Part shown: positions 13,991-47,330 of the stretch, piece after piece | Position numbering within the stretch: the stretch's first letter is position 1 | Layout of the letters: each line of letters begins with the position of its first letter | NCBI RefSeq assembly: GCF_006345805.1 | Contig: NC_043012.1 | Span: forward strand, 33,542,001-33,606,000 | Length of the DNA: 64,000 bases | From: Octopus sinensis | Taxonomy: Eukaryota | Reading direction: 5' to 3' | Translations under genes and position numbers: made by a program | Notes under the pieces: model-generated | Seen by the model: only the letters and a program-made list of their open reading frames with translations | The model's database searches: none | Told to the model about the DNA's origin: nothing

Positions 13991-15195
13991 GAGTGTAAAA
14001 CAAAACAAACAGTTCAGCTCCAACCCCAAAAGATTCTACCAAGAACTTGGCAAAAATAAGATAGAAATCAATGCAACTGCAATAGCAGAAGAAATGGAAG
14101 AATTTTGGAAAGAAATATGGTCAGCGAAGGACCAACCTCAGCAAAGATCTATCAAACAACGAACACAGCACCTGGAAAACGCTGGGCCCCTATAACAACT
14201 GAAGAAGTCATCCAGGAACTGCAAAAACTAAGCACCTGGAAGGCACCTGGGCACGACAAGATCCCAAACTTCAGATTAAAATATTTAACAGAAACACATA
14301 AAAGGCTGACTGAGAAATTTAATGAAATAGTAGCAGTCCCAGAGACAATGCCTGAATGGCTCACGGAAGAGAAACTATCCTAATTCCTAAAGCCACTGAA
14401 ACGGTAAACCCACAAAATTACAGACCAATAACTTGTATCCCTACACTTTACAAAGCTTTTACTGCAATAATATTGCAGAGAATGAGCAAACATCTGGAAG
14501 AAAACGACCTGATTCCAGAAGCGCAGAAGAAATGCTGCAAGCGCTCATACGGCTGTAAAGATCAGCTACTGAGCAATAAAGCCATGACTGAAGAGAGCCG
14601 CAGAAAGAAGAAAGGTCTAAGTATGGCCTGGATCGATTATCGAAAGGATTTTGATGGTTTTTCCTCACACATGGATCCTAGAAACACTAACCACGAAGAA
14701 GGTACCACCAATAATCATAAAATATATAAAACTTTCCATGAATGAATGGCAGACAGTGCTACAGCTCCAGACAAAAGAGGGACTCATAAAAACCAAAGCC
14801 ATCCCAATTAGAAGAGGAATATTCCAGAGAGACACGCTCTCTCCACTCCTTTTCTGCTTTGCACTGACACCGTTATCTGACATGCTAAACAGAACTGGAT
14901 GTGGATTCAACTGCTACGGCAAAACAATCAGCCATCTCTTATATATGAATGATTTAAACCTGTACGCTATAAATGATAAACAGGGGGAAACATTACTACA
15001 CAGACACGACAGAGTTGGGACCTACATACACTGGAAACTATGCCAACACTATGCAATGACAATAAAAAAAATATGGTATAGGCACACGCCAGAAAAGGTC
15101 ACAGAAAATTACAAAGTAACCATACTCTGGGATATGCCAATCACACAGAGCTGCGCTCGGTAGTGCAGTGGAAGCACGTGATAAAAATAAGACTA

Positions 15196-15200
<5 letters not shown>
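13991..15200 (+). mobile_element. R4/Dong-like subfamily 1 copy with RT core and two large internal deletions
   Basis: WKAPGHDKI, NYRPITCIPTLYK, YGCKDQLL, AWIDYRK, RGIFQRDTLSPLLF, HLLYMND; ends in the subfamily 1 3' UTR plus (AAT)n. Confidence 0.9.
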
Positions 15201-15285
<85 letters not shown>

Positions 15286-15377
15286 TCGGTGGCTGAAAGC
15301 CATAGAAACACTAATATGGGCCAGTTTAGCAACGGGGAAAAATAACTCTCAAAGACTGGAACATCTTCAAAGTGGGT

Positions 15378-16282
15378 TAAGAAATTTACAAATTTACATA
15401 TCTGCAGCTTTCAAACATACATCCGATCGGCCTTAAAAACTTTAATACCCACAACTGCCTCTGTAAGCACCCTTTTTTTTCTTCTTCTCTAAAAATATCA
15501 CGCTTTTCTTTTTGTGGACTTGCAAAACCCTAAAACTTTCTATGAAAATCTGACTTTTCTTTGCTTCCTCCCAGAATATTCAAATATAAATGTAAACATA
15601 TACTCTTTATTGCAAAAACACACCTGTTCTTCTAACTGGACATACAACATCTCTAGAGGGGTCAACTTCAACCTCCACAATATACCTTGCACGAAATATA
15701 CAAACACTTTTTATTGCAATAACACAAACGCACATGGAAAAAATAATGATGCTAAGATTCTCTCTGGTCGAACACAGCTTCTCTATTCACAAATAATACA
15801 GAACAGCCCTTCAAAATAAGTAAGAAAATTTACAATTTACATATCTACAGTTTTAATCATACATTCGACCAGCTTTAAAATCTTTGATACCCACAATTGC
15901 CTCTGTAAACATCCTTTTTTTTTTCTTCTCTCTAAAAACATCACGCTTTTTTTTTTTTTTCTTTTTGTGGACTTACAAAACCCTAAAACTTTCTATGAAA
16001 ATCTGACTTCTTTGCTTCCTCCTCCTCCCTGAATATTCAAATATAAATGTAAACATATACTTTTATTGTAAAAACACACCTGTTCTTCTAACTGGACAGA
16101 CACACATCTCTAGAAAAGTCAACTTCAACCTCCACAATATTACCTTACAGGAAATATACAAACACTTTTTATTGCAATAACACAAACGCACGTGGAAAAA
16201 AAAAAAAAAAATGATGATGCTACGATTCTCTCTGGTCGAACACAACTTCTCTATTCACAAACAATACAGAACCGCGCCTTCC
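15378..16282. repeat. Tandem duplication of a ~440 bp AT-rich unit
   Basis: Units at 15378-15812 and 15821-16282 align end to end. Confidence 0.9.
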
Positions 16283-16664
16283 TTAATTTTTCTAAGCCTA
16301 ATAGTAGTAAACATCTGAACTTTTTTTGACCGATAGGACCGCACCTAAGGAAAAAAAAAAAAAAAAAAAAGACAGTCAGCCAGCCAACCACCAAGCCAGC
16401 CAACGAGACAGACAGACACTACTGTGATGGTGATAATGATAAAAAAAACAAAAATAACAATAATAAGATACTGCTGTGACTACACATAAAACAATATCAT
16501 TGATGATGATGGTGGTGATGGTGATGGTGATGATGATAATGATGATGGTAATGGTGGTGATAATGATGATAGTGATGGTAGTGGTGATGATAATACAATA
16601 ATAAGCCGACTACGGCTGCTATAATGGTACGATTATAATTGTAACGGCAATGATGCCGTCTCCC

Positions 16665-19600
16665 ACGAGCCAATCAAGCTAAAAAATGATAACATTATCG
16701 TAGCACAAAATGTTTTTGGAAACTAAAAGGAAAACTAAATCAGTATAACAAATCGCTTGTCCTATGGTTAATCTGGAAGCGCGTCCCCCAGGGAAGAGCC
16801 AGCCTGGGATCGAAAAGTCATCAACTGGCACAAACTCTTCTCCGAATACGGACATGGATGGTCACTTGAACGGGAAATCCCCCAACTCGAGCCCTCCAAG
16901 TTCACCACCACAACCACCACAGAAAGAAAATAAGCGGAACAAATGGACCCGAGAAGAGTATAAAGAAGTATATACGCTTATTACTATGCATTAGGTAGGC
17001 CATCTCAAGAGAGACACACCGCAAACTCTTACAGTATATGGAGAACACGGAATGAAGACAGTAGGCCCTATTTGGACGAGAACAAATTAGCAAATGTGAG
17101 GAGGGATATCTTTAGAAATAACAGACTCACAGACAGTGAAATAAGCGCGATCAAGCACGCAACGGAAATTACATAATATAAGACACAAAGGAAATGAAGA
17201 ATCAGATGAACAGAATAGCCCGCCACGAGGCTTAATTGAAAGACTGCCATCTGACCAAAGTACGCAAAGGCCTGAAGATACAAGAAATTCTATTGTACCT
17301 GTTAAAGATAGCCAGGAAAACGAAAAAACAACAGTAACTGAAGATCTCGCATTTGCTGAAGAACACAGAGAGTCTATAGCAGAAATGAGGCAGAAAATCC
17401 TGAATACGCTTGAAGTTGTAAGACATACAAGTATGAATGATAGAGAACCGCTTCATAAACTCTCAAATACAAACCAAAATAAAAAACAAATCCAAATTGG
17501 CAATTATTAACAAATGAAATAATACGAGAATTAAAACCTGATTTTACTGAGTTAAATGAAATTATTTACGCTTCTGCTAGGGCAATTGAAACCAGCTGTA
17601 TGCCCCCGAAAAAACAAAGAAAACAAAACCTGGGAAGAAATCAACCTGGAGAAGTAAAATTGAAAAAGAGATTGAATTTATGAGAGGGGAATATCAATAT
17701 TAAATGAACTAATATGTGGAAATGATGTAAGATCCAGAACAGGAAGAAAGAAGAGAAAATTTGGATCCTCACCAAGAGAAGAACTGATATCAATAAAGAA
17801 ACGCTGAAACAAAAAGTCCAAGCAAAAGCCCAAGAATACGAAGATTTGAGAAGAGAAACAAGTTTTACAAGCAAAATAAGCTGTTCACATCCAATGCCAA
17901 AAAATTCTACAGAGAAATAGGGAAGGAGAAAGTAACCGTTAAAGACCCCCCTCCCATGGAAGAAGTTCAAAACTTTTGGAAACGGATTTGGAGTGACAAG
18001 AAGACGTACAACATAAATGCAGACTGGATTATACAAACTGAAGGATCCTACCAAAATTTACAACAACAAGCATGGGAAGACATCACAATAGCAGACCTAA
18101 GAAGGCACTCACGAAGGCCCATAATTGGAAATCCCCCGGTAAAGATAGGGTGCCGAATTTCTGGCTCGCATCGCTCCCGTGCGCACACGGTAAGCTAGTT
18201 CAGCTGCTCAATGGAATTATGAGAGACCAAAGAAAACACCTGAATGGTTAGCAAGTGGCATTACTTACCTACTCCCAAAGAATAACGAAACCAACCTTCC
18301 AAAAAACTATCGGCCTATAACCTGTCTATCCACCACGTATAAAATCCTAACATCTATCCTGGCGGAGAAAACATATGCATTCATGGAGAAGAACGATATT
18401 TTCCCCATTGAACAAAAGGGTGCCGCCGAGGCTCTTACGGATGCAAAGATCAACTGCTAATCAATCGTATGATCCTTGAGAACTGTCACAACAAGCGCAG
18501 AAATCTCAGCACCGCATGGATTGACATAAAAAGCCTTCGACAGTATACCGCATCCATGGATCTTGAGATCGCTGGACATCTTCAAAATTTCCCCTGTGAT
18601 TTCAAACTTCCTGAAGCACAATATGTCGTTGTGGAATACGAATCTCCAATTATACCACTCTAATGGAGTACTTGCCTCAGAAAATATAAACATCAACTGT
18701 GGAATTTTTCAAGGTGACTCACTTTCACCTTTAATATTCTGCATAGCCCTAATACCCCTTACAAGTGAATTAAACAGAACAGGGTATGGGTATAAAATTG
18801 CCAATAAAAAATAAGCCATCTATTTTATATGGATGACTTAAAACTTTATGGTAAAGACAATAATGAACTTGAAGGCCTATTGCGCACCGTGAAATCATTC
18901 AGCGATGACATCGGGATGGAGTTTGGACTTGAGAAGTGTGCCAAGGCCACTTCCCAGAAAGGGAAAGTGAAGACCACAATTCAGTCGTGTTAGATGTTGA
19001 CACAGTCATAAGAGAGCTTGAGCAAGAACAAACATACAAATATTTAGGGATAAATGAAGGCTCTGGTATTCAGCATGCAAGCATGAAAGAGAAATCAGGA
19101 AGGAATGTTATAGGAGAGTTCGTGCAGTCCTGAAATCTGAACTAAATGCACGTAACAAGGTGTTAGCTATAAATTCCCTAGCAGTTCCAGTTGTTACTTA
19201 TAGATACAATGTGTTGAACTGGAATATGAGTGAAGTAAAGAATATAGATAGAAAAATACGCAAGCTGCTGAGTTGTAATAGGATGCACCACCCAAAGGCA
19301 GACGTAGATCGCCTTTACCTTCCCAGAGCTCAAGGAGGTCGAGGCCTGATCCAATTTGAACTAGCTTACAAAACGACCACAATTGGACTGGCCAAATATC
19401 TCGAAATATCGAATGACTGGATGCTAAAGCTCGTGGAAAATCACGAGAGACGAAAGAAGCTTCATTCTATCATCAAGGAAAGCAAAAAATTGCTATTGAT
19501 CTCGTGCAGGATACCCAAACTGAACAACCCGAGGGAAGTACGGCAACTATTGTTGCAAAGAAGGTGAAAATGATGGCAATGAAAAAAGCGCACGAGCAAT

Positions 19601-20552
19601 TGGCTGATAGGTGGGAGGAGAAACCTCTGCACGGCAAATATGTGACCCGCAGCAAACAAGCTGATGTTGACCAGAAGCAAACCCATCAGTGGCTGCGGAG
19701 CTCAGGGCTAAAAGCAGGGAGCGAAGGTTTCATCCTGGCTGCTCAAGACCAAAGCCTATCAACCCGGAACTACCAGGCCAATGTGATGAAAAATGGAGCA
19801 GACCCAAAATGCCGATTCTGCAACGACATGATTGAAACAGTGGACCACCTAATCTCTGGATGTAAAGTCTTAGCACCAGTGGAGTATAAATTAAGACATG
19901 ACAGAGTTGGCCAATATCTCACTGGCTAATAAGTCGGCATTACAATATCAAAACTGCCGACAAGTGGTATAATCACCACCCTGAGGCTGTAACTGAAGGA
20001 GAAAATGTAACCATTCTGTGGGACTTTCCAGTACATACAGACCGAACCATCAAGGCCAATAAACCAGATATTGTTGTGAAAGACCAAAACAATAAAGTTT
20101 GCTTATTGATCGACATGAGCATCCCCTGTGATCATAATATCTCAGCGAAAGAGTTTGACAAGCTCAGAAAATAAAGACCTACTCATTGAAATTGAGAAAA
20201 TGTGGCATCTCAAGGCGGTTACAATACCAGTGATCGTAGGAGCACTAGGAATGATCAAGAAGGGAACCGAAAATTATATGAGAATGATCCCTGGCTCACC
20301 ATCCCTGCAAGAAGTGCAAAAGATTGTCTTAACCGGTACATCACACGTATTGAGAAGAGCATTGTCGATGTGAGAACTGTTGCTGCTCATGCATTTTAAT
20401 TTAACTTTAAAAAAAAAAAAAAAAAAAATTAACGAACTACTGAGTTTGGTTTAATGGCCTACCAATATACACTATGAGTTTCTTTGCCCTAGGAGTCGGG
20501 AAGACACTCGGCAAGAAATGGAAGAAAATTTGAAAGAAGAAGAAAAAAAGTA
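16665..20552 (+). mobile_element. Near-full-length R4/Dong-clade non-LTR retrotransposon (RT, CCHC, RLE), frameshifted
   Basis: ORF from ~16764 to stop at 20373: NYRPITCL, GIFQGDSLSPLIF, FYMDDLKLYG (~18825), GGRGL, CRFC..H..SGC, RHD, NKPDIVV..LIDMSIP. 3' UTR ends in (TAA)n; 5' boundary approximate. Confidence 0.93.
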
Positions 20553-20581
20553 ATAATAATATAATAATAATAATAATGATG

Positions 20582-20651
<70 letters not shown>

Positions 20652-20691
20652 TGATGATGATGATGATGATAACAGCAGTACATGTGATAAC

Positions 20692-21223
20692 AGCAGTACC
20701 AGGCAGTGGCTCTCATGGCTTCTGATCATAACTGATTGGAAGTGTTATCATGTACATTGTTTTGTCTTGGTATAAAAGATGGGATACAGCAAATATTCTG
20801 CTCAATACCACAGATTTGCTTGTCAGTTGTTTGACCTTAACCAGTTGAGCGTGTCCCTTAGTGGCTGACGATATGTGCATCTCTGATCACAAGCAGAAGT
20901 AATGGGGGAGCATCATAGCCATGTGTTGAGAGAAATTCTTTGGGTTTGGATAATTCACCTCTGGAAACATGGGTGTTTCCCTCAACATCCTTAAACAACC
21001 CTTATTCAGGGACCGTTTGAGCGGGATGGGATACTCGACCAGGAGAAAATTCTAGCTGGGCCCCCACCAGCAAGGTCATGCGCTGTTTATCTTGATATGA
21101 GATCACTATGACGCGCACATATGGTTATGATGCATGTGTCTGGTGTACCGTTATCAGACGGGTATACTGGGCTTCGTATATTTTACCCGTGTCACTTTGA
21201 TGGCATGCACTGCTCTCTCACTC

Positions 21224-21225
<2 letters not shown>
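20692..21225 (+). mobile_element. Non-coding (AAT)n-flanked interspersed element, ~530 bp
   Basis: Second copy at 8695-9085; no ORF; ends ctctctcactc(AAT)n. Confidence 0.8.
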
Positions 21226-21279
<54 letters not shown>

Positions 21280-21291
21280 CAACAACAGCAA

Positions 21292-21336
<45 letters not shown>

Positions 21337-21337
21337 A

Positions 21338-21370
<33 letters not shown>

Positions 21371-21384
21371 TAATAATAATAATG

Positions 21385-22156
21385 ACAACAAAATGAAACC
21401 ATTGACCATGTTGTCTCCAAATGCAGTCTTCTAGCGCCTACAGAGTACCTCAGTAGGCATGATAGAGCTGCACAATATATTCACTGGGTAATTTGCAAAA
21501 ACCTGGATTTGCCCCATGAAAAAAACTGGTGGGAACACAATCCACCTCCTGTGCTTGAAAATGACCACATCTCACTCCTCTGGAACTTCACCATTCAAAC
21601 TGACAGGAAGATAGATGCAAATAGGCCAGACATTATATTGAAAGACTTCAGACAAAGAACATGCCTCCTCATTGATATGACTGTCCCAATCGATATAAAC
21701 GTATCTGTCAAGACCTACCAAAAACTGAGCAAGTATAAAGATCTTGAAATAGAAATCAGCAAAATGTGGAAGCTGAAGATTAAAACAATACCTGTTGTCA
21801 TAGGTGCCCTGGGAATGATAGCGAAAGGGACTGATTGCTACCTAACTCAGATACCAGGAAACCCCAAAATGGCAGAAATTCAAAAGATAGTGCTCATGGG
21901 AACTGCTCATATCCTACGCAAAATACTCTCTATGTAATCCCAAGGTTTAAAACAAACTTTTTTGTTTATTTATTTAATTTTTTTTTTAAATTTATTTATT
22001 TATTTTTTATTTTTATGTATTAGACATTCACTAGTACAACACCATAAAAAAAAAAACCCAAATATATGGCACAGAACTTCCAACCTGTTGTCTCTTGAGG
22101 TCTCTGGGTGAGACTTGGAGCCAACTTGTACAGACATAAAGCAAAAGTCAAACATA

Positions 22157-35536: not shown

Positions 35537-35870
35537 AATTAATAAATAAATAAAACGTATGCATATACATACATATATGTACGTACCTACCTTACATGTA
35601 TATATACATGCATAATGGGTACAGGACACCAAAAAAAAACGTCGAACACAATGAGAAACGAAAACATAAACACAAACCAAGGAAAAGGAAATGGCATTTT
35701 TCTTAACAACGAAAAAATAGAGTACAGGACATACAAAACAAGGGAAATTCCCCTTCTTCAGTCGCCTTTGTTTCATCTACTCCACGTTTCGAAGATCAAT
35801 GTATATCATATGTTATAATTATAAACAGGGTAAATTTTAGCCATTTCTCGGCAGACTGAAAAAAAATGAT

Positions 35871-35922
35871 GAACAACCTTAATCGATTTTCTAACCTTAT
35901 TGAGTTCTCATCAGAGGCGTCC
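35871..35922 (-). ncRNA. Minimal type-I hammerhead ribozyme, copy 1 of tandem pair
   Basis: ggacgcct-CTGATGA-gaact caataa ggtta-GAAA-atcgat-TA-aggttgttc; the first stem II pair is a G-A mismatch. Confidence 0.7.
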
Positions 35923-36176
35923 ACACCATTCTGACAGTCTGCAGAGAAAAATGCAGAGAAAAACTGTTTATATACTCAACAAATGCAGCAGTTTCTCTAT
36001 GAAGGAGTCCCTAATTTGCATACCAAAAGTATTAAACACTCTATAAATAGCAGCGGCCTATCAACGGAGATCTTAGCCCACACAATATCAAGCTATGATA
36101 TTATATGTTACATATTGTATGATTTCAAGGAGGGTAAATTTTAGCCATTTTTCTCCGCAGACTGAAAAAAAATGAT

Positions 36177-36228
36177 GAACAACCTTAATCGATTTTCAAA
36201 CCTTAATGGATTCTCATCAGAGGCGTCT
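36177..36228 (-). ncRNA. Minimal type-I hammerhead ribozyme, copy 2 of tandem pair
   Basis: agacgcct-CTGATGA-gaatc cattaa ggttt-GAAA-atcgat-TA-aggttgttc; canonical core, palindromic stem III. Confidence 0.78.
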
Positions 36229-36421
36229 ACATATATATATAAAGAGAAACTTATTAAGTAGTGCAATATTCAGTAAAACAAAAGCATCACCAGGTTAAAG
36301 TATAAATAAGAGCATGGTACAGCAATGCTCCAATATTTACTGCAAATAGCAGTCGATAATATACGACGCTATAGTAAAGCTTCACTGTATATAATATATA
36401 TATATATATATAATATATATA

Positions 36422-36578: not shown

Positions 36579-36616
<38 letters not shown>

Positions 36617-36710
36617 AATATTATGGAATAAATCCAAACTTACAGGGAAAAATCAGATTTAGGATTGAATCCAATTTTATAGTAAAATATTATATTTTGT
36701 CTCTAATTTA

Positions 36711-44964: not shown

Positions 44965-47330
44965 AGCACTCCGAATGACCGTCGAATCAAAAACAGAATT
45001 CCGCGCGCTTGTTGGCAGCATGGACGCACTGGGCCGAAGGCGAAAAGGAGGAATCCACCAAGATACCCAGGTCCTTTACCTGATCGGTCCTCTCCAGCAG
45101 CAGACGACCCGGCTCGAAATCAAGTTGAGTTGCAGGAGTAGAGCCGACAGGCAGATGACAGCACTTTGACACGTTCAGACACAGGTCTCAATCGTTAGAC
45201 CACTTCCAAATTTGGTGGAGGCATCGACGAAGATCCTCTATACTACCGCGAGGAGCGACCAGTTTGATATCGTCGGCAAATAGAAGGGTGTGTTGCGTGA
45301 GGTCGTCGGGCAAGTCATTTATGAAGACTAAGAACAACAAGGGCCCAAGCACTGAACCTTGAGGCACGCCATTGCTCGCACTGGAGACGTCGGACCGCGA
45401 ACCATTAACTTGAACTTGGAAGGAGCGATCTGAGAGGAAGGCACCAACCCATCGTACAATATCCGGATGGAAAATATATGCTTGAAGCTTGACAAGTAGT
45501 AGGCGGTGGTTACCGAGTCAAAAGCTTGGCAAAGTCCAATAAAACGATGTCAACAGCATCACTATCATCGAGGATGCGCGTCATCAATTCTTCCATTACT
45601 AGTAAGTTGGTCAAGCATGATCTCTTCGGCACGAAGCCGTGTTGGGAATCAGTGATCGAGGCTGTGCTTAGGAGGTGGAGCATCATACTTTTCTTAAGGA
45701 TGGTTTCGAACATCTTGCTGATTATTGATGTAAGGGAAACCGGTCGGTAGTTAAGCGGGTCTTCGCGGCCCCTTTCTTGAAAATTGGGCAGATTATCGCT
45801 GTTCTCCAGTCTGCAGGTATAACACCCGTCGCCAATGACATATTGAATAGTCGTGTTAAGGGCTCGCAGATGACCGGAGTCAACGCTTTGATAACCCGTG
45901 GGTGTGTGCGTCAGGGCCGTGGGCCGTGACCCTTGTTGACATCGAGGCCTGAATAAACACGTTTGACTTGGTCCCGCGTGATGATCAATCGAAGCATTGG
46001 AGGTACCGATCTATCAAATGGAGGGGTTCACGACCATCATCTTGTTTGAAAATAGTTGAAAAAGCCTCGGCAAATAATTGACTCTGTTGATAAGGGTCCT
46101 CAATCGATACGCCTGTTGAGTCTACCAATGTTACAATCTGGTTGTTCAAGCGGGAATTCCGTTTTTGGATTGCTACTGGCATTTACCGCGATTTTGTATT
46201 CATAACTGAAGCGTTCTTTCCTTTCAATTTTCACGGCTCGGTCTCGTTCAGTTTTGTACACCTCAAAAGCTGCAGTCGAATCCAGATTTTTGAATTCAGC
46301 CCAAGCAATATCTCTGAGTCGACGTTCTCGTTAACCTTCTTCGTCACCCAGGGCTTGTGTTTCTTCCTCTTGGGAAGTCCAACGGGAACTGCCTGGTCAG
46401 TCAAACAGATTACATATGCTTTGAGGGATGACCATAGTTCGTCAACTGAGGACAACGTCATCAGGGAACGCCAGTCCAGAAGCGCGGAAGCCTCGGTTAG
46501 AATTTCAAGATTAATTGCAGAGAAGACTCTGCGTGGCAGCGAAGTAATCGTGGGCGTGGAAAAGTTTGTGTGCATGACGAACTTCAGGACCGCATGATCA
46601 CTCTTGGCAAGAGGGGCGCACACAGATACGTCTGACACTGATCTGGATAGCGGGAGAATAGAGGAGAATACCAGATCTAGCATAGATGGCTGTGCCCAGA
46701 CCGATGCCTTGTCGGATATTCAACATGTTGCGATAGAAAACAATCTTCAGCCACGTCAAGAAGGGCCTGGCCGAACCGGGAAGATGTTGTACAATTGATG
46801 CGGGCCAATCGATCATGGGAGCGTTGAAGTCGCCTAGTACCAAGCAGTCATGCGAAGCTGAAACGAATCTTATCGCCTCGAGTAGATGAGCATCGTCCTG
46901 GGGGTCGGCTAGAGGCGGCCTGTAGACAGCCAACACGGGCAGGCAAAACTCAGATGCTCAGCTTGCAATAGACGGCATCGAATTTGGTTGTAGGTTGAGC
47001 ATTTGTGGGTAGAATACCGCAGGACGGTTTGTGCTCAGACTTAACATACACAGCAAACACCTCCACTCGCCTTTTTCCTCTGTCACATCTGAAAAGGACG
47101 TAGCCCTGCAGGTGGATCTCTGAGTCCTTTTGCTGGAGTCAGCCAAGTCTCGGCGGTTTAGCTATCACATCAGGGGAGTCGCGTAGGGCCAGTGTAAATA
47201 GTTCACTGAACTTGGGAATAAGGAGCACGAGTTGGTGTAGACGATGCTGAGCTGTGAAGTCTGAGGGGCGGGAGTTGGGGAACAAGCAGAATAAAGGGCA
47301 TCAGAGATAGCATCGTTGACGGGGGTATCA
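44965..47330 (-). mobile_element. APE-RT LINE ORF2 (CR1/Jockey group), frameshifted, cut by the gap
   Basis: APE motifs VYRPP, GDFN, LDLVFS, SDH; RT motifs NYRPVSLTS, QHGF, LDFAKAF, GVPQGSVLGPLLF, LFADD (~45271), KDLGI. Confidence 0.92.

Follow-up and report, generated by a model that had tools for sequence, protein, structure and literature searches.

The question raised by this locus is what a pair of hammerhead ribozymes lying 306 nt apart represents in an octopus chromosome, and how repeats of this kind are transcribed and copied. The pair is found on the minus strand of a 64,000-nt stretch of the Octopus sinensis genome (assembly GCF_006345805.1, contig NC_043012.1, positions 33,542,001 to 33,606,000; hereafter the window, in whose own numbering positions are given), and a preliminary description made from the letters alone had proposed it as a candidate retrozyme releasing a 306-nt RNA that circularizes. 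The locus is a decayed, 5'-truncated copy, 1.4 units long, of a dispersed, non-coding hammerhead repeat of 306 nt (Table 1). With an octamer and a TATA box at the spacing used by host U6 genes, the repeat units are likely genes of RNA polymerase III (Pol III), likely spread by a borrowed Penelope-type reverse transcriptase (RT) copying an RNA circle, a reading to which we assign a probability of about 60%.

Both hammerhead cores were confirmed on the minus strand, with CTGATGA at 36220-36214 and 35914-35908, and GAAA, ATCGAT and TA in succession at 36197-36186 and 35891-35880. Each is of type I, with a five-pair stem II followed by GAAA, the palindrome ATCGAT and the UUA site, and the two are 93% identical over 82 nt. 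Matches to a loose core pattern in the window were not above chance (8 matches from 4 sites versus a mean of 4.65 expected). Segment 35835-35960 folded with z = -2.99, and the isolated 61-nt hammerhead motifs showed no significant folding (z -0.3). The earlier statement that such hammerheads act as dimers was supported by computed energies: stem III stands at +5.1 kcal/mol in the monomer and an 8-pair duplex between two units at -6.1 kcal/mol, so that the ribozyme, its stem III being unable to form alone, should need a dimer. The predicted duplex corresponds to the double-hammerhead arrangement in PMC4209133. The statement that both stems II keep pairing was not borne out, as their differences represent decay rather than tolerated variation: at -0.2 (upstream) and -0.4 kcal/mol (downstream), versus -4.4 kcal/mol in an intact natural copy, both lack C11.1, and hence the G10.1-C11.1 pair, and one further stem II pair. 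The 16-bp inverted repeat noted earlier belongs to a far longer, family-wide stem extension. As for the predicted circles, folding of 38 monomers gave a mean z of -1.26, with 11 below -2.

Rfam and genome searches, both suggested in the preliminary description, differed in outcome: no Rfam hammerhead match was obtained at either threshold, the gathering score not being reached, but a dispersed family was revealed in the 2.72 Gb assembly, where the pattern CTGATGAG-N12-18-GAAAATYRATTA had 414 exact matches versus 0 for the reversed control. A DNA search with the window element gave 2826 candidates, of which 40 were scored (79-87% identity to the window), and copies were dispersed over many chromosomes. 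In the loci that scored best, 16 of 47 sites fitted the pattern, and in older loci 1 of 36; given the 414 matches and this low share of known sites, ribozyme-bearing copies probably number well over a thousand. Clustering of 102 of 154 aligned sites resolved three subfamilies, A (which includes the window), B and C, with mean pairwise distances of 0.17, 0.25 and 0.28, respectively. Subfamily A copies differ from each column's commonest letter by 8.9-9.5% (26% at CpG), the exact 41-nt stretch of the intact ribozyme is kept at only 16 places in the genome, and core, G-C pair and palindrome are all kept in 8/47 sites. Read against a calibration in which a distance of 0.09 equals about 25 million years (PMC13282606), this divergence suggests that the last wave of the family is roughly 20-25 million years old. 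The family was seen in sequencing runs of seven organisms, mostly as small shares, with family-level cover confirmed in four runs. Contigs from presumed RNA runs covered it as many diverged pieces, and at 95% identity positions 36032-36166 were uncovered by three presumed RNA runs and covered by a probable DNA run; neither result is used as evidence on expression.

Several further observations concern individual copies and runs. In organism C, most of the contig depth of run X6 over L002:1470-1930 falls on the ribozyme and on +85 to +130, and joints in runs X1 and X2 suggest shorter units, which may belong to a related, younger family. At L032, L034, L039, L041, L042, L059, L060 and L195 (longer views L221-L223), a ribozyme-plus-tail fragment (from -41) lies inside a different repeat of at least 1.6 kb, with ~90% identity between copies, a GC-rich start and an antisense protein remnant; it resembles a DNA transposon that spread the fragment, and is the source of 5 of the 16 exact ribozyme matches. 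At L051 and L200 the cut-site TTAA is interrupted by the same sequence beginning CCCTTT, which we take to be the signature of a piggyBac-type insertion.

The preliminary description had the kind of element right, namely a mobile, non-coding repeat that bears type I hammerheads whose stem III is palindromic and that has Penelope-like ends, but was incomplete in overlooking a U6-type promoter and a T-run. With unit positions numbered from the last predicted cut (0 being the first base after it), a TATAWA motif and the octamer ATGCAAAT lie 30 and 77 nt, respectively, above a G at -63. Among 77 copies, the offsets from this G are exact for the octamer (-77) in 30 and for the TATA box (-30) in 39, and the octamer is exact or has one mismatch in 46/49 (A), 20/28 (B) and 6/8 (C). 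The same arrangement, with the octamer at -76 to -78 and TATA at -30 or -31, was present in 8 of the 15 host U6 loci fetched out of 48 scored, and the octamer was present within 400 nt upstream of none of the 12 U2 loci sampled. Alignment to the 77 unit promoters gave z 6.1 for U6 locus L229, whose upstream region is not a retrozyme remnant, 2.5-2.8 for clustered U6 copies, 3.8 for the octamer-less U6 locus L234 and -0.7 to 0.5 for the U2 loci. By eye, no proximal sequence element shared with small nuclear RNA genes was evident between octamer and TATA, nor one common to the U6 and U2 genes in their upstream DNA. In 25 monomers the cut is followed, at about +13 to +20, by a run of 4-8 Ts (3 in one). 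An upstream octamer and TATA box at host U6 spacing, a G at the predicted start and an oligo-T end are all found in the family. A tRNA-type B box in stem II was rejected by eye (GTTCGAAAA without the last C); the promoter of the Schistosoma hammerhead repeat reportedly consists of tRNA-type boxes.

For a putative start site, 5' ends were examined in 90 of 93 loci found by pattern, the other three being carried by a single long element. Among 5' ends between -230 and -43, 12/65 fall within -66..-56 (p 3.5e-4, with the interval chosen after looking and one end set by eye). A search by the 3' junction alone returned five loci, three of them new, and all three new ones begin at -55 to -57. Several copies comprise the start-to-T-run segment only and are then joined to another repeat, those checked having neither a tail nor a further unit above them within 1.4 kb; the T-runs lead into three or more distinct partners and, in one case, a bare (TA)n. 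Six U6 loci without a promoter are joined at their oligo-T to repeats, and the downstream repeat of U6 retrocopy L236 is common to seven short ribozyme copies (85-91% identity), that of L232 to two. Searches for further short copies with two other partners gave 0. Chimeric retrocopies of U6 are known from vertebrates (PMC4476161). Because short copies running from the start to the T-run are joined to the same partners as U6 retrocopies, there was probably once an ~80-nt RNA that began at a defined point, ended in oligo-U and remained uncut, which is the behaviour expected of a dimer-dependent ribozyme. A short interspersed nuclear element (SINE) in a master's T-run could explain the seven short copies with one partner, but would still mark the same start. 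The U6-like layout, the pile-up of 5' ends and the partners shared between short copies and U6 retrocopies together make it likely that the unit was once a Pol III gene.

Insertion ends were measured in 108 copies, and the 78 at ≥82% identity are considered here. The family has a fixed 3' end ~75 nt past the cut: 66/78 copies end at +66 or beyond, and a microsatellite (TA/CA-type) follows 50 of these 66, versus 226 of 1500 random flank windows. The 5' ends are spread from -11 to -521, never reaching two full units. The tandem arrays anticipated earlier were found as pairs, with 44 locus entries (38 distinct) having two ribozyme sites 264-307 nt apart, but none had three; no array beyond 1.95 units was seen, and a dimer-plus-further-unit pattern had 0 genome matches versus 9 for dimer-plus-tail (one of the 9 being a single unit). 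Thirteen of the 78 copies reach above -372 and thereby pass the first start site, and in four the upstream octamer is included; the upstream promoter and two ribozymes are regained only by products longer than ~520 nt (4/78). In a half-to-half comparison of 29 dimers (L133 and six duplicate fetches dropped), halves differed by 13.1% versus 14.4% between unrelated halves, with 27 derived changes in common versus 15.5 expected (p 0.0008). Shared derived changes despite such divergence indicate that both units of a tandem arose together, at insertion, from a single template lineage, and not by later duplication. An opposite-strand piece occurred in 3/194 locus entries, none head-to-head at the 5' end; two-armed insertions are thus no feature of the family.

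The genome holds many Penelope-like elements (PLEs) with open frames. In its GIY-YIG PLEs, a (TA)n or other microsatellite ends the element 62-72 nt (5 of the 7 examined) or ~155 nt (2/7) past their own minimal hammerheads, and in an Anolis PLE reverse transcription starts internally, 85-92 nt past the cut, with cleavage unneeded (PMC11167929). By analogy, the end geometry of the hammerhead repeat points to a PLE enzyme; it is all that the repeat was seen to share with the PLEs sampled (20 of 147 GIY-YIG loci and 12 longer stretches), among which no partner with the same 3' sequence was found. The copies examined contain no PLE protein match, and an RT or GIY-YIG frame is absent from the units, as are an open reading frame of 110 aa spanning the unit, long terminal repeats (LTRs), and, judged by eye only, a primer-binding site and a polypurine tract. 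Young PLE families of this genome (L097, L084, L093, L096, L091, L102, L080) have frames of 775-781 aa, and their 3' ends carry minimal hammerhead-like motifs with U3-A8 cores (TTGATAA, TTGAAAA) or CTGAAGA and a palindromic stem III.

Structure was compared across the subfamilies, in all three of which the commonest letters of core, palindrome and cut site are identical. Subfamilies A and B have C-G and U-A, respectively, both at stem II pair -25/-16 and at the outer stem pair -58/+23, and some C copies have C-G at pair -26/-15. RNAalifold gave no structure over many decayed copies, and helices were therefore counted pair by pair: in 44 copies 86.5% of cells were paired, with a covariation score above 499/500 shuffles, a test that relatedness inflates. 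Divergence among copies was 24/588 (4.1%) in the core and 211/3390 to 268/2614 (6-10%) in the flanks, a comparison that includes a locus-finding bias. Selection is visible between subfamilies rather than in this core-versus-flank comparison.

Taken together, these data suggest a life cycle, given here as predicted from sequence. A master locus of 1.7 units or more, in which promoter and ribozyme each occur twice in alternation (promoter first), would be transcribed from the first G, and most RNAs would end at the first T-run, giving ~80 nt with a single ribozyme that stays uncut, its stem III having no partner. RNAs that read through would contain two ribozymes, adopt the double hammerhead fold and release a 306-nt monomer, which a host ligase would close into a circle. 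A Penelope-type protein would then nick TA/CA repeats and prime ~75 nt past the cut site, and its RT would copy round the circle for up to about two turns. Circularization by RtcB and mobilization by PLEs form the published retrozyme model (PMC7229834). Only products longer than ~520 nt would regain the upstream promoter plus two ribozymes; the window copy, at 432 nt, would have fallen short. Since 13/78 copies pass the first start site and no trimers were seen, RT running more than once round a promoter-containing 306-nt circle is the simplest source of copies extending above that site. Ordinary retrocopying leaves behind any promoter that lies above the start; copying of a circle would rebuild it. 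We raise, at somewhat less than even odds, the possibility that the retrozyme is a captured U6-type Pol III gene whose promoter could be inherited only inside the ribozyme-cut circle, to be rebuilt by more than 1.7 RT turns. If true, this would give self-cleavage and circularization a concrete job. The abundant 80-nt one-ribozyme RNA may also act in trans, as the missing half of a double hammerhead for rare read-through RNAs.

A number of points weigh against the proposal of Pol III units copied from a circle. Cleavage, circle, start site and polymerase are all predictions; runs of 4-8 Ts are expected to be strong Pol III terminators, yet the RNA behind most copies continued beyond them. The eight promoter-bearing U6 loci represent two independent promoters, seven of them being one tandem cluster, and an unrelated palindromic repeat shows the octamer-TATA spacing too (2 matches in 435 kb). 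A pile-up of 5' ends at one turn (-253 to -229) is marginal (12/82, p 0.05), and three dimers begin at -368 to -371, the first start site, which suggests uncut linear templates for some insertions; the trimer test is of low power. A search of 20 of 147 GIY-YIG matches and 12 longer stretches yielded no autonomous PLE carrying this hammerhead, and the PLE families so sampled bear other hammerheads. The count of pairs with changes on both sides was not above shuffles (374/500; relatedness inflates the test), and every compensatory change is a single inherited event. In Xenopus, 1 of 9 retrozyme dimers was cleaved in vitro (10.64898/2026.07.22.740005).

Four other explanations were considered. 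An octamer plus TATA also describes some Pol II promoters, to which T-runs are no obstacle, and the short copies could then stem from master loci with a SINE inserted in the T-run, as would suit seven short copies with one SINE partner and similar junctions and the empty searches with two other partners; the spacing and flanking bases, however, are like those of the U6 gene and not of U2, the start is a G as in U6, and at least three different partners plus one bare (TA)n join at the T-run, the same partners recurring in U6 retrocopies, which leaves a Pol II origin clearly unlikely. The element and its promoter may instead be as proposed but spread with no circle, uncut linear read-through RNAs of tandem masters serving as templates and the ribozyme being incidental. 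The three dimers that begin at the first start site fit this, as do copies that run to +65..+75 from a single start site, the many retrocopies spanning the uncut site, and the insertion in vitro of the Anolis PLE, which is unaffected by hammerhead mutants (PMC11167929). The 13/78 copies beyond the first start site would, however, need trimer masters, of which none was found, and core letters and stems are kept in three subfamilies; a circle needs one T-run read-through, linear templates need trimers and up to three read-throughs. Linear templates alone are, in our judgement, rather unlikely. The repeats could also be passive, 5'-truncated pseudo-LTR remnants of an autonomous PLE and not self-standing, since PLE insertions include partial tandems whose hammerhead sits close to the 3' end (PMC8557442, PMC4209133) and vertebrate retrozymes derive from pseudo-LTRs (10.64898/2026.07.22.740005). 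In the copies examined, however, units continue upstream into unrelated DNA or a further unit and in no case into a PLE reading frame, the few nearby PLE pieces are separated from or opposite to the unit, and a closed unit of ~300 nt is kept by three subfamilies, making such an origin very improbable.

As regards the window locus itself, the preliminary view of it as a present source of a 306-nt circle could not be upheld. Its cores and palindromes are both intact, as in only 4 of the 30 dimers checked (core letters), and its monomer folds well as a circle. The G10.1-C11.1 pair is nevertheless lost in both cores, both stems II are near 0 kcal/mol, the copy differs from the family's commonest letters by ~9-11% in a family itself ~9% diverged, and no promoter lies above the first ribozyme. 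Its sole promoter-like module (36021-35967) lies between the ribozymes and would transcribe the second alone, as an RNA of ~80 nt from 35942 to ~35860. With both stems II weakened, release of a monomer is unlikely; as the upstream promoter is also missing, the locus is probably an inactive fossil and a dead end, and that it still makes the circle has only the slimmest probability. An inactive locus is of lower value as an experimental entry point.

The preferred reading, that of Pol III units copied from a circle, places the family in a known class, the animal non-LTR retrozymes; what is new is the promoter, start-site and chimera evidence. It resembles metazoan non-LTR retrozymes (PMC7229834; PMC7761336; 10.64898/2026.07.22.740005) in its non-coding, AT-rich unit within 150-450 nt, tandem organization, type I hammerhead whose palindromic stem III is weak, self-paired predicted circle and co-occurrence with PLEs, but differs in that no arrays beyond 1.95 units were seen, the family is old and decayed, expression and circles are predicted only, and a U6-type promoter layout and T-run are present; metazoan retrozymes seem to be without promoters according to a 2020 review (PMC7761336). 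Similar-sized hammerhead repeats with their own promoter inside the unit are newt satellite 2, with a small nuclear RNA (snRNA)-type promoter used by Pol II, and Schistosoma SM-alpha, with a Pol III promoter (Coats et al. 1994; Ferbeyre et al. 1998, cited in PMC2220036), unlike which the octopus family has an octamer and TATA as in the host U6 gene and a T-run right after the ribozyme. With PLEs and their pseudo-LTRs (PMC4209133, PMC8557442, PMC11167929) it shares partial tandems truncated to varying extents at the 5' side, a fixed 3' end with a hammerhead just upstream of it, (TA)n targets and a predicted internal RT start, but has no RT or GIY-YIG frame, a hammerhead other than those of the sampled PLEs, and no head-to-head inverted arms. 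As in U6 snRNA chimeric retrocopies (PMC4476161), the oligo-U end of a short RNA is joined to a SINE or long interspersed nuclear element (LINE) piece on the latter's 5' side, here with the same partners, but that short RNA comes from a mobile element and bears a ribozyme. In the literature on octopus and cephalopod hammerheads and retrozymes we found no description of this family, and in that on promoters of retrozymes and hammerhead repeats no U6-type promoter in a retrozyme; subscription journals and supplements (for the family, also Repbase/Dfam) may hold one. To the question of how animal retrozymes are transcribed, and why a ribozyme is needed when PLE insertion in vitro requires no cleavage, a family with the host U6 promoter layout and fossil records of start and stop offers a testable answer, as well as a motif to seek in young retrozymes. 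A cephalopod-type U6 promoter, with its octamer at -77 and its TATA at -30, emerges from the comparison too and would be of use in small-RNA expression tools.

Table 1. Features of the hammerhead repeat insertion, in window coordinates.
Feature	Position	Strand	Remarks
Whole insertion, ~432 nt (1.4 units)	35801..36232	-	5'-truncated at -353 from the second cut; 3' end ~+75 to +79
Upstream type I hammerhead	36177..36227	-	core 36220-36214; stem II 36213-36198, G10.1-U11.1, two G-U pairs, -0.2 kcal/mol
Upstream hammerhead, cut and palindrome		-	GAAA, ATCGAT; predicted cut after 36186
Downstream type I hammerhead	35871..35921	-	core 35914-35908; stem II 35907-35892, G10.1/A11.1 mismatch, -0.4 kcal/mol
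Downstream hammerhead, cut and palindrome		-	GAAA, palindrome; predicted cut after 35880
Predicted cut-to-cut monomer, 306 nt	35880..36185	-	circle fold -84.1 kcal/mol, z -5.1
Octamer ATGCAAAT	36014..36021	-	79 nt above the predicted start (77 in most copies; 76-78 in U6 genes)
TATA box TATATAAA	35967..35974	-	32 nt above the predicted start (30 in most copies; 30-31 in U6 genes)
Predicted transcription start, with 5' arm of long stem	35935..35942	-	position 35942 (G), 63 nt above the cut, where 5' ends of copies pile up
T8 run, candidate Pol III terminator, first unit	36165..36172	-	
T8 run, candidate Pol III terminator, second unit	35859..35866	-	
3' arm of long stem, with tail to the family's fixed 3' end	35801..35858	-	predicted start of reverse transcription
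Copy-specific 12-nt duplication	35940..35963	-	brings the 5' arm closer to the complement of the 3' arm
(TA)n at 5' junction	36233..36242	.	likely target microsatellite; no clear target-site duplication seen

Other repeats were noted in and beyond the window. A tandem cluster of ~20 variant U6 genes lies at 141.83-141.95 Mb of G000:C1 (L237-L243), with octamer and TATA in each one examined. An AT-rich palindromic repeat, resembling a miniature inverted-repeat transposable element and having an octamer and TATA at similar spacing, was seen at L097:1090-1400 and L145, and a piece of it lies near the hammerheads at 36615-36710. A very high-copy repeat at 35600-35800 adjoins the 3' end of the element; its summed contig depth exceeds 400,000 in one run, and on its minus strand GAAAC precedes CTGAAGA, which is the order of a permuted hammerhead. 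Elsewhere in the window, a 2.5-kb (ATG)n array and LINE reverse transcriptase fragments occupy 3293-5825, 14356-21937 and 45510-46957.
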